From an uncultured Rivularia sp. (GTDB lineage Bacteria > Cyanobacteriota > Cyanobacteriia > Cyanobacteriales > Nostocaceae), in assembly GCA_963665115.1 (NCBI GenBank), contig OY762007.1:6720001-6784000 (forward strand): a stretch of 64,000 bases of DNA. Reading direction: 5' to 3'. The position numbers and the translations under genes are program-made. This document shows, piece by piece, positions 12,774 through 42,987 of the stretch (position 1 is its first letter; each line of letters opens with the position of its first letter). The notes beneath the pieces are model-generated. The model was not told the origin of the DNA. It did not search any database and saw only the letters and a list, made by a program, of their open reading frames with translations.

Positions 12774-12804
12774 TATTTTGAGTAAGTTATAGATTAAAAC
12801 CTGG

Positions 12805-12877
12805 TGTGACTTTACCCATAACTTTGCCGCAACGGCAAGCTTATGCTTCCAATAAAATGTGGCAAACTTATGGTTCC
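12805..12877. repeat. tRNA-proximal transposon end with TnsB-binding sites
   Basis: Terminal site 12805-12830 plus CGGCAAGCTTATGCTTCC (12833-12850) and TGGCAAACTTATGGTTCC (12860-12877). Confidence 0.85.
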
Positions 12878-13047
12878 ATTTTTTCGTTATAATTTTTAAC
12901 ATATGTTCTGTGCTTCATCTTGTCTTACGAAGTAACACATTAATTATGGTTAGCTTAGTGATTTTTTACTTATAAATACTTGACTTTTTCAAATCTTGTG
13001 AAATGAACCGTATTACATAGTGAAGTACATAATGTGGGTTTTAAGCT

Positions 13048-14415
13048 TCATAACCCAAGTTCGCGATTTGCTTCTTTAAGAGCTAATCTAACCTTCTTGT
13101 ATCGGAAGTAACCTGGCTTGGAAACTAGTTTTGAAACAGCAGATTCAGAGGGATATTTACCTTGATTATGTAGCTTTAAAGCAACTAGCCGCACTTCCTG
13201 GCAGCACTCCTCTAATGTTTTTTTATGGTAATCTTTCTGATAGCTGATATACCTGGCAGAAATAGCGCGACATAAATCTGGAAAATATTTGTAAATCGTT
13301 CTTCTATCAATTCCTAACCGTCTAGCTACTTCTTCCATCGATAAAACAGGAGACTCATCATTTGTGAGTAAAGCTTCTAAGTCGGATTTAACTTTCTCAG
13401 AATTAAATGGCTTACTCTTTTTTCTTGATTTGCTTTTAACTTCAGTTGTTAATAATTTCTTTGAGATGCATAAATTATTAGGTTCTTCTGTCAAAAAGCT
13501 GAGAATTGATACTCCAAGAAAGTAACAAATATTTGTTAGTGCTTTAAGAGAAGGTGAATTTTTACCTTTACACCAGAGCCAAACAGTATTTCTGGGAATA
13601 TTAATTTGACGAGCAAATTCAGCTATATTTCCTTCTGCAATTTGCTCAACCCATTTAGATAGATTGAGAGCGATTGTATTAGAAGATAAAGAATCATTCA
13701 AATATGGAGTAGCAGCAATCAATTCTCCAATAGTTTTAGCAATCCATATTTTCTGTTCTAGCTCATTTTTTTTCAAAGTGTTCCTGTTGGCTGATTCTTG
13801 GGATAGAGTCTGCCCTAACCACTTTCCACATTTTGAACAATATCCTGGTTGCGATCGCCAAGCCAGCGTAGTGTTTTTTTGATGACAATTACGACACTCA
13901 AAAATTAATTGATAGTTGTGATATGGGCATATTTCCACTACATCTAGCGACCAAAGTAAAGGCTCATAAATTAATTGTTTTTTCTCGTACCATTCTTGGT
14001 AACAAATTGGACACCAAGCCCTAACAGGGCGCAGTAAATTTCTAGAAGGGAATAATTTACACCAAGTTAGTAAAGTGAGAAAGCATAAATTGTCACGTAG
14101 TGTTAATTTCTGTAGAGCTTGAACTAAGTCCTGTGCCATGACACCGCTACCGTTTAGCGCAGTAGTGTATTTATAGATTTTGTGTAAATTAGCACTTCCA
14201 TACTTTTTGTTAACAAGTGCTGCGAGTTCCTTTTCCATTAAAACCCCTGGATTAACACAATGAGCCTCAGCTAATCGAGATATGTAACCAGTTAAGCTTT
14301 CCACTAATGGAGTGCCAATACCAACAGGCTCTAATTGATATAACCGACTACGAGATGGAATAGCAAGCTTCTTTAAATCCCAAGTTTCGTATGTTTCTAA
14401 TGCACTAGCTAACAT
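13048..14415 (-). CDS. tnsD: TnsD-type target selector (TniQ domain plus C-terminal HTH DNA-binding region), ~455 aa
   Basis: SRLYQLEPVGIGTPLVESLTGYISRLAEAH TniQ N-terminus, zinc ligands WCPIC/CPYH/CRNC/CSKC, C-terminal HTHs. Start reassigned to ATG 14415, which overlaps the tnsC stop. Confidence 0.88.
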   Translation of the reverse strand: MLASALETYETWDLKKLAIPSRSRLYQLEPVGIGTPLVESLTGYISRLAEAHCVNPGVLMEKELAALVNKKYGSANLHKIYKYTTALNGSGVMAQDLVQALQKLTLRDNLCFLTLLTWCKLFPSRNLLRPVRAWCPICYQEWYEKKQLIYEPLLWSLDVVEICPYHNYQLIFECRNCHQKNTTLAWRSQPGYCSKCGKWLGQTLSQESANRNTLKKNELEQKIWIAKTIGELIAATPYLNDSLSSNTIALNLSKWVEQIAEGNIAEFARQINIPRNTVWLWCKGKNSPSLKALTNICYFLGVSILSFLTEEPNNLCISKKLLTTEVKSKSRKKSKPFNSEKVKSDLEALLTNDESPVLSMEEVARRLGIDRRTIYKYFPDLCRAISARYISYQKDYHKKTLEECCQEVRLVALKLHNQGKYPSESAVSKLVSKPGYFRYKKVRLALKEANRELGL

Positions 14416-15556
14416 CTTCCTGTACTCCGATAGGATCTCTTTTAGGTTTGCGTTTGCCAACCTTTTTTGAAGGACGGGTAGTTTTTGGAGTTTCTTCTGG
14501 TGGCGCGATTGATTTTGCGCCAAGTCCTAATGCAGAACGTAAGTTTTGTACATCTGCTTCTGTTTCAGATAATTGTCTTTCTCCTTCTTGAATTTCTTTA
14601 AACATCCTCTTACATTGAGCAACCGACCAAGCGCGTTGTTGCAAGTATTTGAGCGAAACGGTTGCTGCTTCTCTATTGAGAGCATCTTTAAAAGCGCGTG
14701 TTAACCAATTTTTCAGTATGCCAACACATCCTAAAGTACGCTCATAAAAATATTCCCAATGACTAACTAAATCTGGAGTTTGTGCTAGCGGCATATGCTG
14801 TTGGAAAGTTAACAATACGCTTTTGAAAGCCTTTACGTCTTCTGGATTATCAGCACAATAGCGGCGAAAATGAATATCAACGCTACGCCGCGAGAGTTGA
14901 CCGCTTAAATTACGAAATGTAAGTAGTTCGTATGTTCCTAATAGACAGTGCAAAATCCCTGTCATATTTGCTAGAGATTTGAGACAATCTAATTGATCTT
15001 GAAGCTTGTGTCCGCTTGCCATCTTGCTAAAATGTTGTGCTTCATCTACAAAAAATACGTCAGGATGGCGATGCTTGAGAGCATTTTCTAAAGCTCTGCG
15101 TAAAGCAGGTGCATATACTTTCGACCCAAAATTTATTTTGCCAAAATTATCGCGAGAGATACCACGCACACCATAATCAAACTTGTAATCGATTAAAGGT
15201 TCTTCTAAGGCGATTAAGGCACGTGTGTAGTAATCTTTCCAATTAAAGTTTCTCGATTCTGGGGCTACGGCTTCAACACCAACAACAGGAACACGACCGC
15301 GATCGCTTTCCAGTAATGATAATGCTAGTTCTGTTAATTTCTGCTCAACACGGAGTCGCAAAGTTGTTTTACCGACACCGCTAGCACCGTAAACAAAGAT
15401 AAATGATGCCCCTGCGGGTTCGGCAATTGTTCGCATGAGGATGTCATAGACTTCCATAAGTCGAGGATGCGCTACGGTGTAATTCTCAAAGTAAGCAAGC
15501 CTTTCTGTAGGAGGTTGTTTGAGGAGTTCAGGCGAAAATCCAGTAGATTTTGTCAT
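14405..15556 (-). CDS. tnsC: TnsC AAA+ ATPase
   Basis: Walker A GASGVGKT, Walker B FFVDEAQH, QLSRR arginine finger; located between tnsAB and tnsD. Confidence 0.92.
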   Translation of the reverse strand: MTKSTGFSPELLKQPPTERLAYFENYTVAHPRLMEVYDILMRTIAEPAGASFIFVYGASGVGKTTLRLRVEQKLTELALSLLESDRGRVPVVGVEAVAPESRNFNWKDYYTRALIALEEPLIDYKFDYGVRGISRDNFGKINFGSKVYAPALRRALENALKHRHPDVFFVDEAQHFSKMASGHKLQDQLDCLKSLANMTGILHCLLGTYELLTFRNLSGQLSRRSVDIHFRRYCADNPEDVKAFKSVLLTFQQHMPLAQTPDLVSHWEYFYERTLGCVGILKNWLTRAFKDALNREAATVSLKYLQQRAWSVAQCKRMFKEIQEGERQLSETEADVQNLRSALGLGAKSIAPPEETPKTTRPSKKVGKRKPKRDPIGVQEDVS

Positions 15557-15558
15557 AA

Positions 15559-18273
15559 TTAAAACTCCTCGTAAACTACAAGTGTATCTGGGACAATCAC
15601 TTCATCTTCAGCCATTTGAGTATCAGTATTTTCAAAACTAGCTTGAATAATTTTTGCTTGTTCGTTACGGCTTGTTGTTGTTTTCCCGCCGTCAATTACC
15701 CTAAAGACTTCCCTAACTTCTGCATCATAGGAACGCTGTTCTAGTAGAGCTTCTTGTGCTTCTACTGATGCTAAAAATTCTGCTAGATTCTTAGCAGAAA
15801 CTTGAGATTGCCGTCCATGATTTGAGGAGCGTTTGCGTAACTCAGCACTAGCTAACTTCAATTCCTTTTCTGAACGACCTTGGAATTCTGCATAATATTG
15901 AGAAATACACTCTACCCACTGTTTTCCAACAAAAGCGTGAGCGATACCAATATTAAATGGGTCGTATCTTATCTTCACAGAAGTATTTTCAATTTGGGGG
16001 TCGCGAAAACTATTAGACCAGTAGTAGATTGAGTTAATTTTTACACCACGTCCAATTTGAACTTTTGCTTTCCCACTTGAAGTTGTAGGTAGGGTAAGAA
16101 TCTGAAAGTTTTCGTCGTAAGAAATCATGCGGTGAATCCGACTGCCACCAATTGCTATCCCCGCAGCAAATGCATCTCTCGGACTCTGGAAAAGTGCTGG
16201 GTGTTCGTTTGTATCGTAAACTTTGTAAGCCCAAGTACAAAGATGTTCATAAAGTGAACCAAGTGTCCATACAGCAAGATTTTTAGGGTTCACTGATTTG
16301 GTTACTTGGCGGACGTTACGGGTTATTTGTGTATTACCGAGTAAGTTATGGACAAATTGAGTATTGGATGTGCCAAATAGGCGTTCGCAAACCGAACCAA
16401 AACGAGCTTTGGCTGGGGGTCTTTGTTTTTTCGTACATTCAAAAGTAGCTAGTAGTGTTTCAAAGTAAACGCTGTGAAACTCTGTACCGTTGTCTACGAC
16501 TACAATTTGGGGAAGCCTACCGTGACGCTTAACACAAATTCTTAGCGCCATTAAGCAAGAACGATATGAAGGTGAGTCAAAGGTTAGGTAAACTGCCAGC
16601 AATCGCCGTGAGTAAGCATCTACAAGAAATGTCGCCCAAGGTCTGCCAAGATTGCGACCTGTACGAGAGCAAACTAGCTCTACATCTAACTCGGTATGAT
16701 CTATATGTCCAATTTCAAAGGGGCGATCGCCATGTCTTGGGGTAGTTGTAGTCAGTTCATAATAGAAGGATTCATGCTTGTAAGCGGCACGACGACCTTG
16801 ACGTTTTTTAGTTTGTTCGTAACCAGTACGGCGTTTTACTTCTTTGGTAAATGCTTTGTAACTCGGAGCAATTACACCAGATTGTTCGCAAGCTCGAACT
16901 AAAGCCCCGTGAACCTCCCGCATTCTTTTTTGTTTTAAAGTTTCATAGTCTTCTAAAATAAATTTCTCCATAATTGCTAAGGTGTCTTCGGGCAACTTGC
17001 GCTGACGATTACCTTTGACACTGCGATGGGACAAAAGCCCAATGTAGCCGCAACCGTATTTTTGCTGTGCAGTTAGATATTTAGCTTTCCAGTCACGAAT
17101 GGTACGGGCTGATGTTGTTTCGTTTTCTGGGGGATGTCCGTTTAAGTAAGGTTCGATAGTTTTGTAGCGTTCAAGGGCTTCTGCTTGGTCTTCTGGACTA
17201 GCTTGATAAAATCGCTGCCAAGATTCTTTGCTAATAGCTGTTGTTTCTGGTGTTTGGAGACTTGTGATTTTTCCTTGGCGAACCAGATTCTCAAATACAG
17301 CTTTTTTGAGTTCAATTAACTGATTATTTTCTGCGCCAAGTATAATCTCTGTTTTGCCTACGTGGATGATATTTAAACCTTTGCCGTCCCAAATAACAGG
17401 TGTTCCAATGGTTAGATTGATTACAGGAGAGATAGCCGGAAGACTTACACTTGGCTGCTCAACCATTAATCTATAAGCGCTGGCAGTTTCTTCGTCACGA
17501 AAGATGAGACATCTTTCTGGTTCTGCAAGTGGTGTAGTATTTAAATCAAAATAGATTTGCTCTTGCGTAATTAAGGTGTAGATGTCGTCAGATTTAGCAC
17601 CTGTTGACTGTTCGAGTAATTCGGCTAAAGTGATTCCTGGTTGAGACGAAACAATTTCCACTAATGATTGAGCGATCACTTCTTCCACTACTAGGGATTC
17701 GGTTCGGTAATAATCTTCTAAAAATTGCAAATTACGTTGCAAGACCCAATTAATTTCCCTATCTGAACGAATGTGGTAATAAAGCCCAATCTTTTCAGCA
17801 TATACTTCTCCTGGCGGACAATGCCATTGATTATCTTCTTGAGAGTAAAAGTAACGATTGGGGTTTTTCTCTGCTAGTTTTTTCAAATCCTGCTCAGTTT
17901 TACACTCTTCCCAACCAGCAGAATTAGTTCGGATGACAAAGAAATCCGGGGTATGGAAAACGCCTAATTTACGTCCGTTACTTCCTTGATAGTCAAGTTT
18001 AATTTGTGGTGGTTGATCGTAGAATTCTAAAACATCTCGATTGTGTTCTAACTGATAAATAATTGGCAGTTCAACCCGATGAGACTCAAATTGAATTGTG
18101 AATCCCATCTTGCGACTAGGGTAGCGTCCCGAAACATTCTTGCTACCGCCACCAACGCGACGGGATGGTTCAGATGAGCGAACTTTCTCAATTATTTTTT
18201 GCCCTGCCTCGGATATTTGAAGGCGAGCAACCCATTGTTCAAATTGCTCTTTCATATAGTCTTTACTAAGCAC
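15559..18273 (-). CDS. tnsAB: TnsA-TnsB fusion transposase
   Basis: N-terminal TnsA endonuclease motifs (FESHRVE, QP, TPDF, EECK) fused to a DDE integrase core (HIDHTELD, VVDNGTEF, CERLFG) and a Mu C-terminal-like region; 904 aa. Confidence 0.92.
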   Translation of the reverse strand: MLSKDYMKEQFEQWVARLQISEAGQKIIEKVRSSEPSRRVGGGSKNVSGRYPSRKMGFTIQFESHRVELPIIYQLEHNRDVLEFYDQPPQIKLDYQGSNGRKLGVFHTPDFFVIRTNSAGWEECKTEQDLKKLAEKNPNRYFYSQEDNQWHCPPGEVYAEKIGLYYHIRSDREINWVLQRNLQFLEDYYRTESLVVEEVIAQSLVEIVSSQPGITLAELLEQSTGAKSDDIYTLITQEQIYFDLNTTPLAEPERCLIFRDEETASAYRLMVEQPSVSLPAISPVINLTIGTPVIWDGKGLNIIHVGKTEIILGAENNQLIELKKAVFENLVRQGKITSLQTPETTAISKESWQRFYQASPEDQAEALERYKTIEPYLNGHPPENETTSARTIRDWKAKYLTAQQKYGCGYIGLLSHRSVKGNRQRKLPEDTLAIMEKFILEDYETLKQKRMREVHGALVRACEQSGVIAPSYKAFTKEVKRRTGYEQTKKRQGRRAAYKHESFYYELTTTTPRHGDRPFEIGHIDHTELDVELVCSRTGRNLGRPWATFLVDAYSRRLLAVYLTFDSPSYRSCLMALRICVKRHGRLPQIVVVDNGTEFHSVYFETLLATFECTKKQRPPAKARFGSVCERLFGTSNTQFVHNLLGNTQITRNVRQVTKSVNPKNLAVWTLGSLYEHLCTWAYKVYDTNEHPALFQSPRDAFAAGIAIGGSRIHRMISYDENFQILTLPTTSSGKAKVQIGRGVKINSIYYWSNSFRDPQIENTSVKIRYDPFNIGIAHAFVGKQWVECISQYYAEFQGRSEKELKLASAELRKRSSNHGRQSQVSAKNLAEFLASVEAQEALLEQRSYDAEVREVFRVIDGGKTTTSRNEQAKIIQASFENTDTQMAEDEVIVPDTLVVYEEF

Positions 18274-18501: not shown

Positions 18502-18537
18502 GTAGATTTTACAGCGATACTAGTTCACTATTATTTT

Positions 18538-18798
18538 GTGGCACTAAAACACTTCAGTATTGAGTACCGTTTTGGCAGAGCGATTAGGCGGCGAAGGCGA
18601 GAGCTAGATTTGTCCCAAGAGGAACTGGCTGAGAAGTCAGGGCTTCATCGCAACTACATCTCAGGTATAGAAAACGGAGAGCGGAACCCTTCATTGAAAA
18701 ATATTGCTAAGTTAGTGGCAGCTTTGGAGATATCTGTCTCCGATCTGTTTGTGAATTACCGCATCGAGGTTAAAGGTGAATCAGAAGCTAGTTCCTGA
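18538..18798 (+). CDS. Xre/HTH_3 regulator resembling RM controller (C) proteins
   Basis: LSQEELAEKSGLHRNYISGIENGERNPSLKNI HTH; divergent from tnsAB and upstream of tniQ. Confidence 0.88.
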   Translation: MALKHFSIEYRFGRAIRRRRRELDLSQEELAEKSGLHRNYISGIENGERNPSLKNIAKLVAALEISVSDLFVNYRIEVKGESEASS

Positions 18799-18848: not shown

Positions 18849-19846
18849 ATGACTATGACTATTTACTTAGAACATTGGAACCTAAAACCTCCAGAAATAC
18901 CGCAACGGAGTAGGTTATTTTGTCTTGAACCTGTGGCGGTGGGAACTCCCTATGCAGAAAGTCTTAGTAGTTATCTTCATCGTTTAGCGCAGGAGCATTG
19001 TTTAACCTCTCAAAAACTGGTTATGGGAGAAATTGCGCCACTTATCCTCAAAAATGAAGATAAATCTGAGCTATTGAAAAAAAATGTGAGTCACCTGTTG
19101 GGAAATAGCGACGCTAAACCAGCTATCAACGGAATGCGAGAAATGACAGGACAGTTAGTCACTGTCTTAGAAGAGTTAACAATGCGTCAAGATTTACGCT
19201 TTTTGACCCTTTTAAGCTGGAAAGGAATGATTCATGACAAGGGGTTATTTCGGAACCATCGCGCTTGGTGTCCCCTTGTTGTTTGGAAGAGTGGAAGCAG
19301 GAGAACAAAACTATCTATGAGCCGTTATTATGGTCATTTAAGGACGTAGAATTTTGTTTGATTCACAAACAGCGATTAATAGAAGAATGTCCTCATTGTG
19401 GTTCGCATTTACCTGCGATCGCTAAGTTGTCATCTGCGGGATTTTGTTCTCGTTGTTACGGGTGGTTAGGACAGGAAATTAAAGGCGAAGAGGAAATTGA
19501 GAAATATCGAGTTAAGATTCAAGGAATTAGCGAATTAATTGCACTTACTCCACAATTAGGATATGAACCCATCCCAATCGAGTTAACCCGAAAATTACAA
19601 CTAATTTTGTTAGTGTTTGAACAAGCAATTGGGAAAGATTTGCTGTTATTGGGAGATTTAGGGAGAATTATGGAATCTTTGAAGATAGCCTCAAAAACAA
19701 ATCAAAATCAACCTTATCATTTGGTAAAGTTGATTATTCCCGTGTGCGAGAAGGCGAAGATTAGTGTATCCCAGTTGTTTGGGTCAGATTTTAAGGAATT
19801 GGGCAAGATATTATTCGAGAATTTTGGTCTGGAATTAAAGTTGTAG
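18849..19846 (+). CDS. tniQ: TniQ, predicted Cascade-associated target selector (~331 aa; apparent frameshift in C-run 19272-19275)
   Basis: SRLFCLEPVAVGTPYAESLSSYLHRLA. Joining the two ORFs restores RAWCPCC...CLIH...CPHC...CSRC zinc fingers. Confidence 0.85.
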
Positions 19847-20414: not shown

Positions 20415-21872
20415 TCATGCCCAAAATGGTACATACTTTGCGTGCTTTTTAGAAGTATTTTCTGGATCGTAAGGTTTTACTAAGTCCGCATCTATTGTGT
20501 CTGAAATAATACGAGATGCCATTGAGTAATTCTTATCTTTTATAGAAAAACGCTCTCTTAGCGATGAATTGGTCATGTAATCATGTGACACATAGCGCAA
20601 GCAAGCGTGTTGGTAACAAGCTCTAACTCTATCTGCTTTATCCATATCTGACAATTTTTTGTAAGCAAAAAGTGTTGCTTTCGTATGGTTGCTTGTGACT
20701 ACAAACTCAGGGGCTGGTAACTGGAAAAGTTCTACTGCGTTGATAACTTTATCAATACCAGTTCCTCGTTCTTCACAAATATTTATACGACGCATAAAAG
20801 CAGCTAAGTCCTCATTACGAGAACGAGGTGGTTCATCAATAAACCGCATTGTATCTATAAGTGGCACTCCTGGATTGGTAATCTCAATCCGATCCGAAAA
20901 AATTTCAATTATCGATCCGGTGCCAGTCATATTAAAATCTTGGTGAATAATTGCGTTTGCAACTAATTCTCGAATGGCAATTTCTGGATACATTCTTTGT
21001 TCTTCACGAAAAGCTTTACCAATCCGTTCATTTTTAGGTAATTGATTATTAATAAATTCCACTACTTCTTCATAATCAATAGCATAGCCTTTAAAACCTG
21101 TTCGTTCTCGCTGAGTTTCAATCCTATTTTTTCCTTTATAAATTACAACCCGGATTGCTTTTCGTGACAATCGCTCAAACATTTGTAAGTCTTTAGCGAA
21201 AAGAATAGCACCTAAATTTGTTATATCAAAAAAAACATCGGTTTTTTTGACAATAAGCTTTTCTGAAATTAATCGGTTTAATATGCCATCTCTATTTTCT
21301 GGTAATGGCTGTTTTGTTAAATCAAAATAGGCTGGGTAATTTATATTTTTGATTACCTCATCTACCATTAATTTTTCTAAAGCAATGCTTTTTTCAAATG
21401 GTTCTAGAGAAAATAAAACCCATAGTTGTCTTTCTTTTTCTTCAAAATCTCGAAGCTTTTTTTTGTAAGTTCCTATACGAATATATTCAATCCCTTTAAA
21501 ACGTACAGGAACGTGAGTCGCTTTAGGTATTTCAAAAATGACTATATCCTTACCTTCATAAGGGAATTCATGTATTTTAAAATTGATTCGAGGAGATAAT
21601 TGTGTCGCTAACCAGTTTTCTAATTCTTGATTTCCAATTTTTTCTAATCGAGGCTTAAAATTAGTACCAACAATATCATGGTTATCGTTATTGATACCCC
21701 AAACTAAATAAGCAGTATTTTTACCATGCAGAGTAGCTGAATTTGATAACGCCGATAAGTATTCACCTATGTCTTCTGGGCTACTATTATTTACTTTAAA
21801 TTCAACCCATTCTGTTTCATGGGGTAGAGATGTTAATCCTGCCAACAATGATTCTAAATAATCTGCGTCCAT
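20415..21872 (-). CDS. AlbA_2/Schlafen-like N-domain + HATPase_c_4 (RecG C-terminal-like) + wHTH protein
   Basis: ETEWVEFK...LSALSN...LVWGI (AlbA_2); AIRELVANAIIHQDF, IEITNPG, RNEDLA, CEERGTGI. Confidence 0.8.
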   Translation of the reverse strand: MDADYLESLLAGLTSLPHETEWVEFKVNNSSPEDIGEYLSALSNSATLHGKNTAYLVWGINNDNHDIVGTNFKPRLEKIGNQELENWLATQLSPRINFKIHEFPYEGKDIVIFEIPKATHVPVRFKGIEYIRIGTYKKKLRDFEEKERQLWVLFSLEPFEKSIALEKLMVDEVIKNINYPAYFDLTKQPLPENRDGILNRLISEKLIVKKTDVFFDITNLGAILFAKDLQMFERLSRKAIRVVIYKGKNRIETQRERTGFKGYAIDYEEVVEFINNQLPKNERIGKAFREEQRMYPEIAIRELVANAIIHQDFNMTGTGSIIEIFSDRIEITNPGVPLIDTMRFIDEPPRSRNEDLAAFMRRINICEERGTGIDKVINAVELFQLPAPEFVVTSNHTKATLFAYKKLSDMDKADRVRACYQHACLRYVSHDYMTNSSLRERFSIKDKNYSMASRIISDTIDADLVKPYDPENTSKKHAKYVPFWA

Positions 21873-29942: not shown

Positions 29943-30022
29943 GCGCTAGCATATTAGTACAATTTTACCATCTCAAATAACAAAGTGGTTATGTCCAGAA
30001 AACATATCATGTCAACTGATGC

Positions 30023-30098
30023 TTTACCGTTTTGGTAAATCAATTTTTTATACTGTATTCAAACTAGTTGTATTAAAAAACTTTACCATTTTGGTAAA
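30023..30098. promoter_or_regulatory. Two palindromic operators upstream of higB
   Basis: TTTACC-GTTTT-GGTAAA (30023-30039) and TTTACC-ATTTT-GGTAAA (30082-30098). Confidence 0.6.
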
Positions 30099-30107
30099 TA
30101 AATTTTT

Positions 30108-33250: not shown

Positions 33251-33601
33251 ATGGCAATTGACCTGGCTATGGGTATTGCTCCAAAAATTCCTACTCAGAG
33301 ACACTGGGATGCGTTTAACGCATACCTAAAACCCCTAAACGATTTGATGGAACTCGAAGAGTTTCTTCGGCACTGGGAAGTGTCACGAGAAGAATTAGCT
33401 TTTATTTGCGACTGTTCCTTAACAACAGTCAATCATTGGTTTTCTCAAGGCATTGACAGGAGAGTACCAAGCCAAAAACACAAGCAGCGCCTAGCTTTGG
33501 TACACCATATTTGGACTGCAATTGATACAGAACCGGAGTATTTACAAAAGCTACGGGAAATGTATCGCCAAAAACCGCGCAAAAATCGTAACAATCCTTA
33601 A
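33251..33601 (+). CDS. Small HTH DNA-binding protein
   Basis: VSREELAFICDCSLTTVNHWFSQG resembles an Xre-like HTH; flanked by palindromes. Confidence 0.65.
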   Translation: MAIDLAMGIAPKIPTQRHWDAFNAYLKPLNDLMELEEFLRHWEVSREELAFICDCSLTTVNHWFSQGIDRRVPSQKHKQRLALVHHIWTAIDTEPEYLQKLREMYRQKPRKNRNNP

Positions 33602-33800
33602 TTGCCAAATGGCAAGTTTTTATTGCCATCGTGGCAATAAACAATTTATGGTCATTAATTGAGTAAGAATTTCTAGAAAAAGAACTTGTAACGAATTCTT
33701 TGGTTTTTCAATCATAGCCAAGGGCTTTATTTGCCTATCGTACAGATTATTTTCAGGCAGATATCTTAACACCCGCACTTGTGGTAATAACGGCAAACAA

Positions 33801-35567
33801 ATGGATTCCATCTCAACCTTTGACATTACTAAATACCCCTTATTCGATGTCATGAAAGACATCAAATTTGGACGCATTCAATTACCAGATTTTCAACGAG
33901 ATTGGGTATGGGACGATATTCATGTGCGGCGTTTGTTGGCAAGTATATCGCTGGCTTATCCCATTGGTGCAGTCATGATGCTGCAACAAGGCATCCAAAG
34001 TCAACAATTTAAACCTCGCTTGCTTGATGGTGTGGCAAATTCTGCTTCTCAATTGCCAAACTTACTTGTACTCGACGGACAGCAAAGACTGACAACTTTA
34101 TTCATGGTGCTATTGTCCTCCCAACCCGTTACTATTAAAGACCTTAAAAGTCATAAGTTAATCAAAAAATGGTACTACCTAGATATTGAAAAAAGCCTCG
34201 AACCAAATTGCGATCGCAAATCAGCAATAATCGCATTACCCGAATTAAAAATTATGCGAACTCGAAATAGCGATTTGATTGACTGTTCCACACCAGAAAA
34301 CGAATATGAAAACCTTTTATTCCCCTTATCAAAAGTATTCTCTTATTCCGAATGGCGCAGTAAATTTTCTAAATATTGGCAGTATCAACCACAAAAGCTC
34401 GAACTGCTTGACACTTTAGAATTAGAAGTCCTTAAAAAGTTTGAGCATTATCAAATACCAGTAATTAAACTGCGAGATTCTTTACCCAAAGAAGCAGTAT
34501 GTCAGGTTTTTGAAGACACTAACACTGCTGGGTGCGACTTGAATTTCTTCGATTTAATGAGTTCGAGTTATTGCGTAGGCGACTTCAGCCTTCGAGATGA
34601 TTGGAAAAGCCGCGAAAGCCGCTTCCAATCCTTCAAGGTGTTACGAAAAGTTCGTAACACTGATTTTGTCCAAGCAGTTACGTTGGTAGCTGGTTATACT
34701 CGCAGAATTGAAGCAATCAAGCAAGGCTGGAACTTAGATAAATTACCTGGTGTATCCTGCGGTCGTTCTGAAGTATTAAAGCTGACCAAAGAAGAATACA
34801 TATTATGGGCAGATCCGGTTCATCGGGGTTTTGAAGAAGCCGCTCGTTTTCTACACAGTCAAAAAATCTTTGATGCTAAGGATATCGCTTATCCCATTCA
34901 GTTAGTTGCTTTGAGTGCAATTTTAACAATTCTTGGAGAAGGTTCCCGTTCTTATCAAGTACGCAGTAAGCTTGAACGCTGGCTATGGTGTGGAATGTTT
35001 GGCGAAATTTATACCCGGTGGCACGATGCACAAGCTGGAAGAGATGTAGTTGAAGTTCCAGGATGGGTTTCGGGTGGTGCGGTACCTTTTTGCATTACCC
35101 AAGCAGATTTCTCTTTACAAAGATTGATTAGCGTTAGAAAACGACTTGGTGCAGTATATCAAGGTTTTTCAGCATTACTACGTCGAGAAGGTGCAGTTGA
35201 TTGGATTACAGGCGAAGAAATCAACGATGTTGTTTATTTTGACGAACAAATTGACTCGCATCATATCTTCCCTATCGCTTGGTGTCGCAAACAAGGCATT
35301 GACCCCAAAATTTATAACTGCCTTGTTAATCGTACTCCCCTAAGCGCTAAGACTAACAAAAAAATCGGTAGCAAGGCTCCTTCGCTCTATTTGAAAGAAT
35401 TTGAAAAACAAGGAATAGCAGCAGGAAGACTGGAAGAAATATTGCGATCGCACTGTATCGAATTTAATGTTTTACAATGCGATAATTTTGAAGCATTTTC
35501 CCAAGCTAGAGCAGAAGCCCTTATGAAGCTTATAGGTAAGGCTATGGGTAAAAACTTGACTTTTTAG
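33801..35567 (+). CDS. gmrSD: GmrSD-type (DUF262 + DUF1524/HNH) type IV restriction protein
   Basis: FQRDWVW, LDGQQRLTT, FEDTN (DUF262); IDSHHIFP...NRTPL...N (HNH-like DUF1524). Confidence 0.82.
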   Translation: MDSISTFDITKYPLFDVMKDIKFGRIQLPDFQRDWVWDDIHVRRLLASISLAYPIGAVMMLQQGIQSQQFKPRLLDGVANSASQLPNLLVLDGQQRLTTLFMVLLSSQPVTIKDLKSHKLIKKWYYLDIEKSLEPNCDRKSAIIALPELKIMRTRNSDLIDCSTPENEYENLLFPLSKVFSYSEWRSKFSKYWQYQPQKLELLDTLELEVLKKFEHYQIPVIKLRDSLPKEAVCQVFEDTNTAGCDLNFFDLMSSSYCVGDFSLRDDWKSRESRFQSFKVLRKVRNTDFVQAVTLVAGYTRRIEAIKQGWNLDKLPGVSCGRSEVLKLTKEEYILWADPVHRGFEEAARFLHSQKIFDAKDIAYPIQLVALSAILTILGEGSRSYQVRSKLERWLWCGMFGEIYTRWHDAQAGRDVVEVPGWVSGGAVPFCITQADFSLQRLISVRKRLGAVYQGFSALLRREGAVDWITGEEINDVVYFDEQIDSHHIFPIAWCRKQGIDPKIYNCLVNRTPLSAKTNKKIGSKAPSLYLKEFEKQGIAAGRLEEILRSHCIEFNVLQCDNFEAFSQARAEALMKLIGKAMGKNLTF

Positions 35568-35915: not shown

Positions 35916-36094
35916 TTGAGCAACGCCTAACGGCATAAAGCCAAGACTCACGGTAAATCCACATTCGAGCTTGTAGCTAATCAGGTGAGCAACGCCTAAC
36001 GGCATAAAGCCAAGACTCACTCATGATTTTTGAATCCCAATTTTAAATTCAATATCTGGTGAGCAACGCCTAACGGCATAAAGCCAAGACTCAC
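35916..36094 (-). CRISPR. Minimal CRISPR array: 3 x 36-bp repeats, 2 spacers (33 and 38 nt)
   Basis: Repeats at 35916-35951, 35985-36020 and 36059-36094. Minus-strand repeat GTGAGTCTTGGCTTTATGCCGTTAGGCGTTGCTCAC with hairpin ATGCC-GTTA-GGCGT. The distal copy has a variant last base; the array follows cas5. Confidence 0.93.
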
Positions 36095-36340
36095 AGCAAA
36101 GGCTGAAACCCTTGAGTGATGAAGGCTCACTCACAATTTTACAAGTACCCCTCAACCGGAGATCCCAAAAAGACAAAACTTATTAATTTTTTGTATTTCT
36201 TCAACCTCTAAAACTCAATCCCCTTAACTCTTTTAAGGATTTGCAAGTACCTTTTCCAGTTATAAATCGCTATATCCCTTAACGTGTAAACTTTCCCGCC
36301 ATTCTTTTACTTCAATCCTCTTCCCCAGCAAAGGTGCTTG
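36095..36340 (-). promoter_or_regulatory. CRISPR leader
   Basis: AT-rich non-coding stretch between the cas5 stop and the first repeat. Confidence 0.6.
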
Positions 36341-36980
36341 TCAAATCGGAGATTGAATCATTGTCCACGCCAAATCAGGAGGTGACAATCTATCCATTTC
36401 CTCAATTCGATACCTTAAAAATCGGGTATTTCTTGACCCCACATGATCAACCCAATAGGGTAAGGTTAACCAACCTCGATTATCCATAATTACCCAATGT
36501 CTCACCTCCCCTAGATAATCTTCGGAGACAAGTTTGATTGATTTAATCAACTGATCACTTTCTCCCAAAAACAAACAACCGAACCGTCTTACTAGCTCAG
36601 GATGCTCAAAAGCCAACTGTATCCGCTCCCTCAAACTTGGTTGTATCTTCTCTCCTTCGGAAACGAACCCAAATCAAACACTGCAAATTAGATAAAATTT
36701 CTTGATAACCGGGAATCACATTCTCCGGGTGGCTAAAATCAGCATTCTTAAACCGCCTCATTTGACGCAAAATTCGCGACTTTTTGGGACTTGATAACAT
36801 TGCGATCGCCAATTCCACCCCACAGTGGCGATAGACATCCGTTTCTCCTACCAAAGACAACAACATCCCATATACTGTTGCTGGAGGAGGAACAGAATAG
36901 GTTTTTCCCATTTCTCTTGCATGGGACTCCCGAAAAGTCGCAAATGGAACATCCAAATAAAGAATTGATGGTGCAACCAT
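36341..36980 (-). CDS. cas5: Cas5, type I-B (apparent +1 frameshift at 36661-36663)
   Basis: LYLDVPFATFR...TYSVPPPATVYGML Cas5 signature. Removing one base gives WVRSEGEKIQPSLRERIQLAFEHP...LFLGESD. Confidence 0.88.
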
Positions 36981-36985
36981 TTTGA

Positions 36986-37945
36986 TTATTCTAAGCCCAA
37001 ATCTCTTTTTATGACCGTTTTCAAAGCTTCAATCAGTTCATTTCTATTACGATTAATATTCACCTCATTAAAAGGGGAATTATCAAAATTATCTAATTGC
37101 TGTAACTCCTTAACAATTGTTCCCCCAATCCACAATTGCTTAGGGTCAATTTGTCCGCATTCCACTTCATCTATAAACTCTTTTGTCAGTTTTGCTTCCT
37201 TACTTTTAGGATCGCAATATTCAAAGCAATAAGAAACATATGAAGCAAAATTATTTGTCCATTGAAATACTAAACTATCGGGAAAGAAAGGATAATTAAA
37301 AGCATTACTACTACCTCCTACTTTGGGCAGATTCATAATCCCATCTATCAGAGGTAAAATCCGCGAAAAGTCTTTGAGATGAGTAGCATTAATTCCAAAA
37401 TAGTATTGATATCTAGTTGCATGATATTCGGTGAAATGAAGTGATGTACTATCCTTTTCTCTGCCACTTTTTGCCCCTAACTTGACTGCACCGTCATAGG
37501 GAGTGAGCGAAACAGCCATATTCATCCCTAAAGCACCCAATCGTTGATTAGGAGTGCTGACTTTTGTTTTTTTCTTTTTCCTCTTGGTTGTTGAAGTCTC
37601 CTCCTCTGTTTCCGCAGACTCTAGTAAAGCAAACCCAAAAATATCATCATCATAAAACTGTTCTGGATCGAAATCTTCACTTGTTAACCGATTAATATGT
37701 TCATCTTCGTCCCAAACTCTATTAACTAAATAACCTTGCTTTTGCAGATAAAAACGTAACGCCCAACGAATTGCACTTGAACCTACAAAAGAATGAATCC
37801 TACCATTCCAATAGCCTTTTTGTAGAATAGTCTTATTGCCTCGTCTAATGTCATGATTTAAGGAAGCTAACCCATAACCAGTGAGGACTGTTCCGTAAAG
37901 GTAATAATTGGGTATATTGTTATCATTCTTCTTCTGACTCATCAT
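36986..37945 (-). CDS. cas7: Cas7 (DevR/Cst2-like), type I-B
   Basis: VGSSAIRWALR, FYDDDIFGF, MAVSLTPY, PKVGG; lies between cas8 and cas5. Confidence 0.9.
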   Translation of the reverse strand: MMSQKKNDNNIPNYYLYGTVLTGYGLASLNHDIRRGNKTILQKGYWNGRIHSFVGSSAIRWALRFYLQKQGYLVNRVWDEDEHINRLTSEDFDPEQFYDDDIFGFALLESAETEEETSTTKRKKKKTKVSTPNQRLGALGMNMAVSLTPYDGAVKLGAKSGREKDSTSLHFTEYHATRYQYYFGINATHLKDFSRILPLIDGIMNLPKVGGSSNAFNYPFFPDSLVFQWTNNFASYVSYCFEYCDPKSKEAKLTKEFIDEVECGQIDPKQLWIGGTIVKELQQLDNFDNSPFNEVNINRNRNELIEALKTVIKRDLGLE

Positions 37946-38339
37946 TCATTTCTTCTAGTTGTTGATTGTTTGTTAATGAATTATCATCACTATTGGTAGG
38001 TTTATCCTTGGGCTTATAACTGGCGATCGCTAACAATGCCCAAATTCTTAATTCTTGCCAAGATGATTTTTTAATTAATAGTGCAATCTCTTGCTGATGC
38101 TGAATAAAATATTTATTTAATCCCCCTCTTACTAAAAAGTCAGACAAATATTCCTTAAACGATAATTCATCATAACAATAGTTTAGCTCTGCCCTTAATC
38201 GCTCAACTTTCTTCTTAATTGGAGGATTTTTCCCTTCCTCAGTTTTGGCATAAATTTTAGCAAAGTTGCCCTTCATGGCTTGCTGAAATACCTTAATAAA
38301 AATCAGATACTGCTTGTCTTCTTCACTATTATCTGCCAT
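37923..38339 (-). CDS. cas11: Putative Cas11 small subunit translated from an internal start in cas8 (138 aa)
   Basis: In-frame ATG (MADNSEEDKQY...) preceded by AGAAGGA about 9 nt upstream; internal Cas11 starts are established in I-B/I-C/I-D large-subunit genes. Confidence 0.6.
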   Translation of the reverse strand: MADNSEEDKQYLIFIKVFQQAMKGNFAKIYAKTEEGKNPPIKKKVERLRAELNYCYDELSFKEYLSDFLVRGGLNKYFIQHQQEIALLIKKSSWQELRIWALLAIASYKPKDKPTNSDDNSLTNNQQLEEMNDESEEE

Positions 38340-39500
38340 TATTACGAGTCCTTCTCTATTGAAAAATAACTGGTTAAATAAATATTCTTCTGAATCCTCT
38401 ATCACCAATTTTTCCCAAAAATTAGACCACCAATGGTTTCCTTTCACTAAATTATCAGCAATCAAGGAGCGAATCGGATTTACTTTAACAAAAATTTTCT
38501 TAAATTTAATTTTCTGATAATTGGTTTTAAAGTACTTTTGAACCTGTTGATAAGTAGTTAAAGTATTCTTGTCAAATTTAATTTCTTCTATTCCCATCAA
38601 TGTTCTTTGACGAGAAGCTTGATTAATTTTTTCATATAACCAAACTTGACAAGCTTGATAGTAGCCGCCCTCAGTGTGAATATCGTCTAAACTGTAATAA
38701 ATTAATCCTGCTTCACCAAGTTTACTAACATGAAACTGTTTAGTTTCTAATTGCTGTAATCGCCATCTTCTTTGAGAAGCATCTTCAAAATCTTTGATTT
38801 CTGGAATTACTACCAGGTAGCGATGGGGTTTCTTTTCCTTCAAATCCTCTGATGGAATATGAAATAAGCAATAATGACAAATAACTGGTACAAATAATAA
38901 TGCGAAAGCGTATTCAGGTTTTTCTTCCAGTTTTGCAATATTCCGCGTCTTAGCGTGACGAACAATTCCCCCTAAATACAACCAACTGGTTATTCTCACA
39001 TAATCGCGTCTCAGTTGTTGGGTATCTGTATCGCATAACTTCTCTGCAAAGGTCTGATGTGCATACCAAGTTAGGGGTTTGTATTAATACTCGAATTTTT
39101 GTTCTTCAACCGTTAATTCAGTATCAACTAGTTCTCCCGCTTTATAAAACCGATTATGACGTAGAAAAACAGCACACATTCCCTCATGAATATGAATTTT
39201 ATGGCTTAAATCTATTGCATCATTTTCTAGCCCTGCCAAACAAATTAAACCTGTATCATCTAGTTTAAAAGACTCGTTAATTAACCAAGATAGGGCAACT
39301 AAATCACTTCCTTCCCAGGATAATTCAATAGTGTCAGCAGTCAAATCCCATGATATATATCCTCCCCTTTGACGAGATGAGGGATATTGCTGTTCTAACC
39401 GCTTTAAAGTCATGTAAAGTCCCGTCATTCCAGCGCGGTGAATGATTGTCGTATCCGCAGCATCGAGAGATAGGGAAATTTTGGGTTGGGTAGCAATCAT
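37923..39500 (-). pseudogene. cas8: Cas8 (type I-B, Cmx8/Myxan-like) with an in-frame nonsense codon at 39084-39086
   Basis: IHRAGMTGL N-terminus. The frame continues past TAA (KFEY*YKPLTWYAHQTFAEKLC...) into the 358-aa ORF, giving ~525 aa in total. Confidence 0.85.
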
Positions 39501-39977
39501 GTAATGGTTTCCTTTTCTTCCTTATTGCGAGTCGCTGGGACAAATATTCCACACATCATCTTTCGTTTCCCCCCAATACCTTGTTCTTGCAAGGTTAAGG
39601 AATCTTCAGGGTTGAGTTCGTTCACTTTTACGCCAAATCCTCTAATTTTAAACTGTTTCCCTTCTTTACTGATGGTTAATTGTCTTCTTTGAGGTGTTCC
39701 ATCTTGTCGGGTAAGAAGTTCGATTTTTCCTTGTATTTCTAAATTATCCAGTTGCCGTTGCACGGCTTCAATAAAATTACTAGGGTCTTGAAACCCTTTG
39801 ATTACTACTAACCTGGAATAAACGCTTTCTGAGGAAATTAAAGGTTTGTAGTCGGGAATATCTAGTTGATAAGAATTTTTACCTATGTGAAAAGCTTGAC
39901 CTGCTAAATAGGGATATAATAAGTATCCGCTCAAAAAAATGGGGTAAAGGTACACCTTGCGTCGTAGAATATGAAGC

Positions 39978-41666
39978 ATGACGCAAAAACGATCATCTAA
40001 AAAATTAGTCACAGCATTATTGCAATCAATCGACCCAAAACAGATTGCAGACGAGGACGTGCGTCAAACGGTAGAAGTATTACTCAACTTAATAGAACAG
40101 CTAAATGTAAAAATCAAAGAATTAGAAGAAGAAAATCAAAAACTACGTGATGAAAACAACCGCTTAAAAGGTGAACAAGGTAAACCAGACATCAAAGCGA
40201 ATAAAAACAAAGGGTTTAAGAAAAACTATTCATCAGAAAAAGAACGAAAAATAGCAAAAGAACACAGTAAAGCAAGTAAAAACGAGTCTATCAAGATAAA
40301 CCGAGAAGAGATTGTAGTTTACCCACAAGAACAATTACCAGCAGACGCACAGTTCAAGGGTTATGAGGAAGTAGTAGTCCAAGACATTTTACTTAAGCCA
40401 GATAACATACTGTTCCGCAAGCAAAAATACTACTCACCAGAAACAGGAAAAACTTATTTAGCGGAACTACCAACAGGTTACGAAGGTGAATTTGGTCCAG
40501 GAGTAAAAGCTTTGGTCATGAGTCTATATTATGGTGGAAACATGACCCAAGGGAAGTTATTAGAATTTTTAGAAGATATTGGTATCTCGATTAGTGCAGG
40601 AACAATATCAAATTTATTAATTAAAAACCAAGAATATTTTGAAGCTGAATACGAAGAAGTATACAAGGAAGGGTTAGCCAGCAGTCCTTGGCAACACTTT
40701 GACCAAACAGGTGCGCGTGTTGCAGGAGTGAACCATACAACAAATGTGATTTGTAACCCCTTGTACACAATTTACCAAACAACGCGATACAAAGACCGTT
40801 TGACTGTATTAAAAGTATTTCAAAACACAACCGAACTCTCCTTTGTTCTCAACGAGATGACCTATGAACTTTTGGAGACTTTTAAAGTTCCAATTAAGTG
40901 GGTTAATAAACTAAAATTACTATCTCAACAGAAGGCTTTTACCGAAACTGAGTTTAATTTTTTGATTGGTGAGTACTTAAGTAGACTTGGTTCTCAACAC
41001 CGTTCTCGCATATATGAATCGGCAGCAATTGCTTTTTATCATCAGCAATCAACTGTACCAGTAATTACAACTCTAGTATGCGATGATGCTCCGCAGTTCA
41101 AGTTAATAACATCGGATTTGGCTCTTTGTTGGGTGCATGAAGGACGACATTATAAGAAATTAAGTCCGCTTATACCTTGCCATCAAAAACTTTTAGATAA
41201 TTTTCTAGAAAGATTCTGGGAATATTACAGAAAATTATTATCTTATCGAGATTCTCCAAGTTGGGATAAAGCTCACGAACTAGAAATGGAATTTTGGACA
41301 CTTTTTACAGAAAAAAGTGGTTATCAACAGTTAGATGAGCGAAAACGATTAACTACTTTGAAAGTAAACGAGTTGCTTCTCGTGTTGGAGCATCCAGAAT
41401 TACTATTGCATAACAACCCTGCCGAATTAGCTGCTAGGACTATGGTACAACGACGTAACATCAGTTACGCAACCCAGACAAAACAAGGCACAAAAGCGTG
41501 GGATGTTTTTATGTCCCTTGTTGACACTACTCGTAAGTTGGGTATCAGTTTTTATGAGTATATGCGTGACCGCATTTCTCAAGTTGAAAATATTCCATCT
41601 TTGGGGACAATTATTCGGAAGAAATCTTCTTCTAATTCCTATGGTTGGTCATGGATGCCTCAATAA
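39978..41666 (+). CDS. IS66-family DDE transposase
   Basis: Same 562-aa translation as copy 1. Confidence 0.88.
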   Translation: MTQKRSSKKLVTALLQSIDPKQIADEDVRQTVEVLLNLIEQLNVKIKELEEENQKLRDENNRLKGEQGKPDIKANKNKGFKKNYSSEKERKIAKEHSKASKNESIKINREEIVVYPQEQLPADAQFKGYEEVVVQDILLKPDNILFRKQKYYSPETGKTYLAELPTGYEGEFGPGVKALVMSLYYGGNMTQGKLLEFLEDIGISISAGTISNLLIKNQEYFEAEYEEVYKEGLASSPWQHFDQTGARVAGVNHTTNVICNPLYTIYQTTRYKDRLTVLKVFQNTTELSFVLNEMTYELLETFKVPIKWVNKLKLLSQQKAFTETEFNFLIGEYLSRLGSQHRSRIYESAAIAFYHQQSTVPVITTLVCDDAPQFKLITSDLALCWVHEGRHYKKLSPLIPCHQKLLDNFLERFWEYYRKLLSYRDSPSWDKAHELEMEFWTLFTEKSGYQQLDERKRLTTLKVNELLLVLEHPELLLHNNPAELAARTMVQRRNISYATQTKQGTKAWDVFMSLVDTTRKLGISFYEYMRDRISQVENIPSLGTIIRKKSSSNSYGWSWMPQ

Positions 41667-41894
41667 CACCCCTGTATATTAAGACTGTGCTAAACCCTCA
41701 TATCCTTGGTTGTAGAATACTGTAAAGTGCATGGATTAACCACATCTATTTCTTCATAGTTTTTATAAGCGATTGAAACTTTTTTAGTTACTTTGATAGC
41801 ATATTTACAATTTACCTTATTTGCAACTTCCGCTATTAATCAATTTCTTGATTTTGATTATTTTTATTTATTTGTTGCTCTCACGAGAGATCCA

Positions 41895-42037
41895 GCAACT
41901 GGGGAAGATTTGGCGGCGACAGCGGAGTGCCAGGTGGGGGCACGATTATTTTCTGTGCCTATGTAAAATCTATCTGCCCCTACCTGGTACCGTCAAATCA
42001 GCGTAGCGGTTCCCCAGTTGCGCCGCTGCTTTTTTTT
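41895..42037 (+). ncRNA. Putative structured RNA / terminator element in the IS66 3' region (mirror copy at ~25906-26048, minus strand)
   Basis: Nested complementary arms GCAACTGGGGAA/TTCCCCAGTTGC, GATTTGGCGG/CCGTCAAATC and GTGCCAGGTGGGGGCA/TGCCCCTACCTGGTAC, followed by a GC stem and a T8 run. Confidence 0.4.
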
Positions 42038-42417
42038 ATCGTAGTTGACATTCAAGACAGCCGATACCCCGAAATTTTGAGGGGATACTATAATAAAGGG
42101 ATTTGTTGGTGATGAATCCGGATTTTTAAACGAGATTGAGCCGCGATCTCAAGCAAATTGTTCCTAGTTGGTATTCCAGCAATCGGATGGATTCCAATAG
42201 ACTTCAGTTCGTGAAGACCAGGACAAATCCTTGACAAAGCACTATAGATAACATAGCCATTATCAAGAGGAATAGGTGCGCCTCTTAGCTTAAAAGTTAA
42301 GTCTACATATTCCTCACTTGGAATTAATAGGGCTGCCATAGATGAAAATTTATCTCCGACACCAGCCAGCATAAACCGCTTCTGCTCTTTCCTGCTTTCT
42401 ATATTCGATTGAACTCG

Positions 42418-42572
42418 CGGCAGGCTTATCATTCCATTTTGAACTAGCGGCAAAATTATGGTTCCAAGATGCCAATTTCATCAAAAATTGGCTGACGTAA
42501 GAATGAGGGTTATGGTGTTGTTGGCGGCAAAGTTATGGTTCCAGTAGCGGCAAAGTTATGGGTAAAGTCACA
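42418..42572. repeat. cas-proximal transposon end with TnsB-binding sites
   Basis: CGGCAAAGTTATGG-type sites at 42548-42572 (terminal), 42525-42542, 42448-42465 and degenerate 42418-42435. Confidence 0.88.
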
Positions 42573-42987
42573 CCTGGCGACTATAAGTCGCGGCTATACA
42601 AGCAAAACCCACCGTGGCAGGGGTTGATATTCTTTATCGCTTTTCTGGTTACAAGTCAAAGCCTTATAATACACTTCTGGAACGCAGAGCCTTGCATTTA
42701 TACTGGAAGCAGAGCCTCCGGCTATGGATTTTCAGCCAGAAGCTGGGAACCAGTAACCAATCCAAAATCCAAAATCCAAAATTGAAATGACTGTACAATT
42801 GCTCAGACGGAAATTTACAGCGGTTTCAAATTTGGTATCAAAAATTTCATCACCGAAATAATAATTTCGCATTATTCCCATAAACTAAAAAGACGTAGCA
42901 TTGCTACGTCTCTACAAAATTAATTCTTATTCTTAACCCCTGCCACGGTGGGTTTTGCCTGTATAGCCGCGATTTCAATCGCCAGGT
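42573..42987. repeat. ~54-bp inverted repeat pair enclosing a mosaic of short dispersed repeats (MITE/REP-like)
   Basis: CCTGGCGACTATAAGTCGCGGCTATACAAGCAAAACCCACCGTGGCAGGGGTT (42573-) versus its near reverse complement at 42934-42986. The interior holds (AATCCAA)n and a GTAG-type palindrome (42891-42915). Confidence 0.7.

Follow-up and report, generated by a model that had tools for sequence, protein, structure and literature searches.

Within a 64,000-nucleotide stretch of an uncultured Rivularia sp. genome (contig OY762007.1, positions 6,720,001 to 6,784,000; here, the window), we examined a Tn7-like element of 29,768 bp (12805-42572). It is very probable that this element is a type I-B2 CRISPR-associated transposon (CAST) of the PmcCAST family that homed by its TnsD protein to the site behind a tRNA-Ala(GGC) gene and would still be capable of this homing, while its RNA-guided arm has since been disabled by a stop codon in cas8 and by an IS66-family insertion sequence (IS) in cas6.

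The first and last 26 bp of the element form a perfect inverted repeat (12805-12830 and 42547-42572), and a 5-bp target site duplication (TSD), CCTGG, borders both ends (12800-12804 and 42573-42577, plus strand); repeat and duplication were thus located at 12800-12830 and 42547-42577, as a preliminary description made from the sequence alone had reported. Elsewhere in the 8.69-Mb genome, the 26-mer has no match with up to three mismatches and one extra match with five. The insertion lies behind a tRNA-Ala(GGC) gene (12701-12773, plus strand), the site already named in that description. This host attachment gene is intact, is the only Ala(GGC) gene of the genome, and ends 31 nucleotides (nt) before the first transposon base. 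As is characteristic of I-B2 CASTs, the element has Tn7-type ends (TGT...ACA), a 5-bp TSD and an insertion point about 30 bp behind a tRNA gene. Its tRNA-proximal end (12805-12878) contains repeated sites of about 15 to 20 bp at 12816, 12832, and 12859, which are likely TnsB sites, and the first 70 nt are identical at 63 to 66 positions to the ends of three related elements. The distal end (42447-42572) has such sites at 42447, 42524, and 42547.

To look for an empty version of the site, the hisF-tRNA locus was compared across 19 relatives from the same genus, with 90 nt considered per locus. One of them, G009, has the tRNA, 29 nt, a single CCTGG, and then the same host inverted repeat that flanks the element in the window, which is the unoccupied site that the preliminary description had proposed to look for. 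Remnants of a transposon end or of tnsD are found in four of the 19 (G014, G017, G019, and G024), and the remaining 14 show neither the CCTGG site nor a transposon end within the 90 nt. The host inverted repeat, which we take to be REP-like (repetitive extragenic palindromic), consists of 41-nt arms 309 nt apart in 42573-42990, and the distal TSD doubles as the start of its first arm.

The transposition genes lie next to the tRNA. On the minus strand are tnsD (13048-14415; 455 amino acids [aa] from an ATG at 14415, with a TniQ core and C-terminal helix-turn-helix domains), tnsC (14405-15556; a 383-aa AAA+ ATPase), and tnsAB (15559-18255), in which the TnsA_N, TnsA_C, and rve domains share one 898-aa frame, as expected of a fused TnsAB accompanied by TnsC. 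Both tnsD and tnsAB are unbroken. They are followed on the plus strand by an xre (HTH_3) regulator gene (18538-18798; 86 to 88% identical in related elements) and a separate tniQ (18849-19846). Two TniQ-family selectors are therefore present, the long TnsD and a short TniQ, whose 331-aa frame is open in two (X1 and X3) of three public sequencing runs of the same organism. The contigs of these runs, which come from one study (X1, X2, and X3), were compared with the window.

Pfam and NCBIfam searches identified TniQ, AAA_22, TnsA_N/TnsA_C/rve, and HTH_3 domains as well as MYXAN-type Cas6, Cas8, Cas7, and Cas5. In PDB searches, TnsAB matched 9BW1, TnsC and TniQ matched 8FCU (TniQ as 8FCU_P), and Cas5, Cas6, Cas7, Cas8, and Cas11 matched 8FCJ (source, Nostoc sp. 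210A), all over nearly their full lengths. TnsD also matched 8V32 over its full length (TnsD; E value, 5e-133), but much more weakly than the other components matched theirs. By these domain and PDB searches, all of the genes listed beforehand were recovered, i.e., tnsAB-tnsC-tnsD, the xre-tniQ pair, and cas6-cas8-cas7-cas5, and the mini-array is present as well. The proposed likeness to PmcCAST (Tn7744), the type I-B2 CAST of Peltigera membranacea cyanobiont 210A, is borne out by the near-full-length matches of TnsAB, TnsC, TniQ, and the Cas proteins, with TnsD only about half identical. Overall, the system is about 90% identical in sequence to PmcCAST, which has been reconstituted and structurally solved.

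By analogy with PmcCAST and McCAST, TnsD would bind the 3' part of the tRNA-Ala(GGC) gene and then load a TnsC heptamer, and TnsAB would join the ends about 31 bp downstream of the tRNA, leaving the 5-bp duplication. As far as the consulted portions of the literature go, TnsD, TnsAB, and TnsC are enough for tRNA homing (PMC9881144, PMC10293859, PMC11406308, and PMC11915506), and on this analogy it is likely that the element arrived by TnsD homing. The homing route is likely still competent, because tnsAB, tnsC, and tnsD are full length, the Walker A (GASGVGKT) and Walker B (VFFVDE) motifs of TnsC and the acidic residues E62 and D519 of TnsAB are kept (the 9BW1 construct has Ala at both positions), and both ends are perfect.

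An unlikely but tenable alternative is that nothing in the element works any longer, not even homing, and that it is a fossil comparable to the remnants seen at this site elsewhere in the genus. Decay is indeed common at this site: end-only or partial remnants occur in the four relatives mentioned above, and the tns genes are broken in G015 and G019. Likewise, no second copy of the element was found in the genome, although with one target tRNA a single copy is expected. On the other hand, the three tns genes, beyond being complete in every motif checked, show zero differences from X1, X2, and X3, and the 100% identity of the IS66 copies implies that the cas6 lesion is recent. We therefore favor an element that has lost RNA guidance and not homing.

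The Cas module occupies the distal part of the element on the minus strand. It comprises cas6 (39497-42339), cas8 (37923-39500; a 525-codon frame), cas7 (36986-37945; 319 aa, unbroken), and cas5 (36341-36980), together with an unbroken cas11 frame embedded in cas8 (from about 38339). The matching hidden Markov model (HMM) families are TIGR02807, TIGR03485/6, TIGR02585, and TIGR02586 (I-MYXAN type). The mini-array (35916-36094) has three 36-nt repeats and two spacers, of 33 nt (35952-35984) and 38 nt (36021-36058). From the leader side, we infer that the array lies on the minus strand; the likely leader (36095-36340) has its first 45 nt or so kept in five of six related arrays. Folding of the repeat gave only a weak signal (minus strand; z, -2.05).

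An absence of cas1, cas2, cas3, and cas4 from the element had been reported. For cas3 and cas4-cas1 this holds in tblastn searches with queries from two canonical I-B loci, which found no match within the element; cas2 was not seen either, but it was covered by open reading frame (ORF) scans only. A cas6-cas8-cas7-cas5 operon with a short array, lacking cas3 and adaptation genes and enclosed by transposon ends, is a feature of I-B2 CASTs, and here it is present with cas8 and cas6 broken. A tree was also built for Cas7, with 25 rows (14 from a close group, 8 from a group with 36 to 41% identity, and 3 more distant). The window's Cas7 falls in the 14-row close clade (SH-aLRT [Shimodaira-Hasegawa-like approximate likelihood ratio test] support, 100), apart from the 36 to 41% identical cas3-linked I-MYXAN loci, although the tree was made by a quick method in which, as the tool warned, long branches meet. 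Tn7 ends or tns genes of the close group were verified for six related genomes. Six of the eight loci with 36 to 41% identity have an 800-aa Cas3 beside cas8, and the two cas4-cas1 fusions that were scanned belong to cas1_MYXAN. The close relatives were obtained from a search of the family, and a Cas7 search of the class found none among 400 sampled genomes. Because of the placement of Cas7 and the lack of matches to canonical cas3 and cas4-cas1 queries in the element, its cas genes are, on sequence grounds, CAST type and not canonical I-B defense. A grouping with cas3-linked I-B systems, which would have contradicted the preliminary description, was not observed; gene content, PDB matches, and the Cas7 clade all support an I-B2 CAST that has two selectors, with TniQ serving Cascade and TnsD serving tRNA homing.

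Six genes appear broken in the window, namely, tniQ, hsdR, hsdS, cas5, cas8, and cas6. The claim that the element is complete fails for two of them. First, codon 139 of cas8 (39084-39086) is an in-frame TAA, upstream of the cas11 frame, in the window and in X1, X2, and X3 alike, where related loci have CAA (L005) or GAA (L008). Second, cas6 is split by an IS66-family element of 2,166 bp (39923-42088, plus strand; 8-bp TSD TATAATAA), with both halves in one frame, and the X1, X2, and X3 contigs run from cas6 into the IS. Both are real lesions.

The other cas and tniQ breaks look different. An extra base in cas5 (36661) is missing from all three runs, and the frame without it is 212 aa, the length of the PDB Cas5. 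A gain of 2 nt in tniQ (19272) and a gain of 1 nt in the cargo gene hsdR (23309) are present in X2 and absent from X1 and X3, in which the frames are 331 aa and 989 aa, respectively. As a control for the error rate, 96 host ORFs that are open in G003, a close relative (103,851 aligned bases in 11 stretches), were aligned to the genome, and frameshifting events were counted in the inner 80% of each ORF, leaving 20 events near ORF ends uncounted. Of 13 events, 10 are gains of 1 or 2 nt in short base runs of the window's assembly, ruvB included; the others are one 25-nt gain and two events at a single hisF site, at which the extra base is in G003. Some of the counted events may be true pseudogenes, since G003 belongs to a different species and also contains errors. 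The resulting rate, about one insertion per 10 kb of coding sequence, predicts two or three in the coding sequence of the element, and three are observed. Since the cas5, tniQ, and hsdR frameshifts are missing from three, two, and two of the three runs, respectively, and are of the same kind as those in host genes, they are probably assembly errors. In ruvB itself (10428-11357), a 2-nt insertion is seen near 10434 relative to three relatives, and the X2 contig is 2 nt longer than that of X1 upstream of 12600, which would fit this insertion.

Two observations weigh on how these lesions are read. The tniQ and hsdR insertions are shared, at full depth, by X2 and the window and may therefore be genuine mutations of one subculture, in which case the RNA-guided arm would bear three real lesions. 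This is improbable, and somewhat more so than a fossil element: X1 and X3 lack the insertions and show zero substitutions over the same contigs, and gains that all extend short base runs at about one per 10 kb of host genes, ruvB among them, are too many for a living strain. At the other extreme, every lesion might be an assembly artifact and the element complete and active in both pathways. Three of the five cas, tniQ, and hsdR breaks are indeed missing from some or all runs, insertions of this kind affect 10 of the 96 host genes, and contigs drop rare variants, so that a minor intact allele is possible. Nevertheless, this reading has very little to commend it: the cas8 TAA is a substitution found in all three runs with no other letters at that place in the contigs, the unique parts of the locus show no substitutions between the runs and the window, and the contigs enter an IS bearing its own 8-bp TSD. 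The evidence thus returns us to an element with two real lesions, both in the RNA-guided arm.

The RNA-guided route would run from Cascade and CRISPR RNA (crRNA) to TniQ, TnsC, and TnsAB, and would need full-length Cas8 and Cas6. That TniQ joins I-B Cascade to TnsC, and that CASTs presumably obtain their spacers in trans, is stated in parts of the four papers cited above for homing. RNA-guided insertion is likely dead in this copy, because cas8 has a stop codon, cas6 is split by IS66, and there is no second I-B Cascade in the genome. Complementation in trans by a host I-B system was considered and rejected: no second cas5, cas6, cas7, or cas8 of this type, and no array with the same repeat, was found elsewhere in the genome, and canonical I-B Cas3 queries had no tblastn match anywhere in it. 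Three cas1 loci do exist elsewhere, adjoining arrays with other repeats. CRISPR-like arrays of other repeat types lie, among other places, at G000:C1 7608-9389, 88749-89359, 737288-738767, 1699382-1705858, 4763121-4764370, and 8685226-8690033. For the proposal that all parts could be reconstructed from the window by repair, two real lesions remain in the RNA-guided arm, and, as unbroken tRNA-Ala copies exist (see below), repair adds little.

TnsD is the likely determinant of the target. When 32 million genome contigs were searched with TnsD, 10 loci were recovered, eight at tRNA-Ala(GGC), one at tRNA-Ala(TGC), and one cut off; within the family, 65 of 389 genomes had TnsD relatives at E values of <=1e-100. 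A tree was built from the 30 best family loci and the 10 contig loci; omission of L005 and L097, which have short segments, left 38 rows (34 different). The window's clade (support, 100/100) contains six distinct proteins, all six at tRNA-Ala(GGC), whereas a separate clade of five rows is linked throughout to tRNA-Val(GAC). The gap between tRNA and transposon end is 30 to 32 nt at each of the 11 distinct Ala loci where an end could be detected. Other TSDs at this site are CAATT, CCCTT, and ACATT; the differing TSDs of G617, G689, and G015 show that these insertions are independent. The two flanks of G575 differ by one base, and those of G611 do not match. Over 41 nt around the T arm, the host Ala(GGC) gene has at least nine differences from each of 51 other tRNA genes scored, which suggests that there is room for tRNA discrimination.

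Some rows of the tree weigh against a strict link between clade and target. Two rows are at tRNA-Ala(TGC), one of them within an Ala(GGC) subclade; for nine rows (another clade of five and four further rows) no tRNA was found within 1.5 kb; and three distant TnsDs (47 to 50% identical) are likewise at Ala(GGC). The clade of five (L112, L114, L115, L117, and L118) is well supported and has the same ends, but ARAGORN found no tRNA within 1.5 kb; its target is possibly the intron-containing tRNA-Leu that is named in a portion of PMC9881144. Two unusual arrangements were seen at tRNA-Ala(GGC). In one (L008:7586-11326), tnsD stands head to head with cas6-cas8 and not behind tnsC. In the other (L006:8381-11353; also G465, G643, G605, and G708), two tandem TnsD-like genes, of about 527 aa and 453 to 460 aa, lie behind tnsC.

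The spacers give no hint of a target. Against the element's own genome they match at chance level only (best, 16 nt exact or 19 of 20), and the best E values are 0.6 against plasmids and 2 against phages. An exact 22-nt part of spacer 1 has no match in IMG/VR. Among 370 family genomes, spacer 1 has one partial match (21 of 22 nt) and spacer 2 has partial AT-rich matches only (best E value, 2.7e-4). That the element reached tRNA-Ala by a crRNA-guided homing spacer, as in type V-K and I-F3 CASTs, is scarcely credible despite the presence of an array and a Cascade operon, given that the matches of both spacers to the host genome stay at chance level, that the six related arrays all have different spacers though five of them are at tRNA-Ala(GGC), and that the insertion site tracks the TnsD clade.

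The family to which the element belongs is already known: it has been reconstituted, structurally solved, and catalogued, and tRNA-Ala-targeting TnsD elements are in print. With PmcCAST the element shares fused TnsAB, TnsC, TnsD, xre-TniQ, cas6-8-7-5 with embedded cas11, near-identical TnsAB, TnsC, TniQ, and Cas proteins, and insertion about 30 bp behind a tRNA. The PmcCAST ends given in row 57 of Table S1 of PMC9881144 open with the same sequence, and 8FF4 is described in part of PMC11915506 as the PmcCAST complex. Unlike PmcCAST, for which a tRNA-Val target is reported in the same body of text, the element targets tRNA-Ala(GGC), has broken cas8 and cas6, and carries other cargo, a type I restriction-modification (R-M) system of N6-methyladenine/N4-methylcytosine (m6A/m4C) type with defense-like genes. 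According to the legend to Fig. 6 of Chacon Machado and Peters (2025; PMC11837452), TnsDs of this group target Val, Ala, Leu, and Leu*. Table S1 of Hsieh and Peters (2023; PMC9881144) has an entry for a Mojavia pulchra element on JAHHHN010000012.1, the contig of locus L002, whose TnsD is 83 to 84% identical to the window's and is at tRNA-Ala(GGC); "Ala" as a whole word has no match in the supplement text of that paper. Relative to the published tRNA-Ala TnsAB-fusion elements of cyanobacteria, the target class is the same, but Cascade is broken in the window copy.

According to the sections available to us, homing has been tested experimentally for tRNA-Val (PmcCAST) and tRNA-Leu (McCAST and CyCAST); the literature searched contained no experimental test of a tRNA-Ala TnsD, though one may exist. 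McCAST and CyCAST, both of type I-D, belong to the same TnsAB-fusion family, with TnsD homing 29 to 33 bp behind the tRNA in these accounts (McCAST, 29 +/- 1 bp; CyCAST, 30 to 33 nt), in agreement with the gap at Ala(GGC) loci; their Cascade is I-D, in contrast to the I-B Cascade (MYXAN-type HMMs) of the window. AvCAST (type I-B1), as outlined in the same material, is similar in its I-B Cascade without cas3 and its two target selectors, but it has a glmS-targeting TnsD and a separate TnsA in place of the fused TnsAB and tRNA site seen here. Canonical cas3-linked I-B (I-MYXAN) systems of cyanobacteria share the Cas families; however, they form a separate Cas7 branch, and six of the eight loci contain a full-length cas3, which is unmatched in the element.

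The cargo lies between tniQ and the array. A type I R-M system on the minus strand comprises hsdR (22183-25153), hsdS (25157-28500), and two hsdM genes (30108-33100), the upstream with the motif NPPF (31589-33100) and the downstream with NPPY (30108-31601). The order hsdM NPPF, hsdM NPPY, hsdS, hsdR (22183-33100) is the m6A/m4C type I layout described in a passage of PMC5100572. The system is likely inactive, because hsdS, whose halves share one frame of 389 codons, is split by another IS66-family copy (25855-28020, minus strand; 8-bp TSD GAATTAAA). The IS has a single 562-aa ORF and 10 copies in the genome, two of them inside the element; because all 10 are identical and have matching 8-bp TSDs, they point to a recent burst. 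An inversion between the two oppositely oriented copies is ruled out, as each has its own TSD and both interrupted genes are colinear. The remaining cargo comprises a Schlafen AlbA_2 and HATPase_c_4 protein gene (20415-21872, minus strand), an HTH_3/Peptidase_M78 gene with an upstream 109-aa ORF (28523-29942, minus strand), and, on the plus strand (33251-35567), a 116-aa ORF (33251-33601) with no Pfam, NCBIfam, or PADLOC match followed by a gene for a GmrSD_N (DUF262) protein (33801-35567). The HTH_3/Peptidase_M78 gene and the 109-aa ORF, which has no Pfam match, are presumably a HigA/HigB-like pair. Beyond the element, a 534-aa ORF (49002-50606) is made of 180-nt (60-aa) tandem repeats.

Related elements show how target and core are combined. 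Compared with the tRNA-Val(TAC)-linked element of G611, identities are 89% for TnsAB, 87% for TnsC, 88 to 90% for TniQ, 91% for Cas7, 84% for Cas8, and 48% for TnsD; compared with the Ala-linked element of G575, they are 92, 89, 88 to 91, 92, 84, and 84%, respectively. Against the Val-linked TnsD, the N-terminal core is closest (57% for residues 1 to 210, 38% for 211 to 320, and 45% for 321 to 455). Because Ala- and Val-linked relatives resemble the element to about the same degree in core, ends, and Cas module, TnsD is likely an exchanged module that sets the target; module exchange in the TnsAB-fusion family is also discussed in part of PMC9881144. The two halves of such elements may decay separately within the genus. 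While the window keeps transposase and TnsD, G019 (L150, G019:C1:3009000-3028999) keeps unbroken cas6-8-7-5, tniQ, and array, and in the 20 kb examined it lacks xre, tnsAB, and tnsC and has a partial tnsD. In G015, which together with G019 represents the remaining large copies of the genus, tnsAB, tnsD, and cas8 are broken. The tRNA-Ala site thus seems to have been repeatedly entered and vacated within the genus.

As a discovery, the element is of little weight, since the family is known and the programmable arm of this copy is broken. For genome mining, it is a caution that three of five apparent cas, tniQ, and hsdR breaks are likely assembly errors, and frameshift findings elsewhere in this assembly call for the same care. 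Better starting material is offered by G575, G617, and G689, which have unbroken tnsAB, tnsC, tnsD, tniQ, and cas6-8-7-5 at tRNA-Ala(GGC), in G689 with the halves on two contigs. We consider the chances slightly better than even that the Ala(GGC) TnsD is a plug-in selector on a PmcCAST-identical core, such that in the PmcCAST kit it would redirect insertion from Val to Ala(GGC) without cross-reaction. If true, homing would gain another landing site, orthogonal to the first, and the Ala and Val TnsDs would form a naturally matched pair from which to learn how TnsD distinguishes tRNA genes. With a core about 90% identical to that of PmcCAST, the tRNA-Ala(GGC) TnsD clade may offer an inexpensive way to reach a second homing site and to work out the rules of TnsD specificity.

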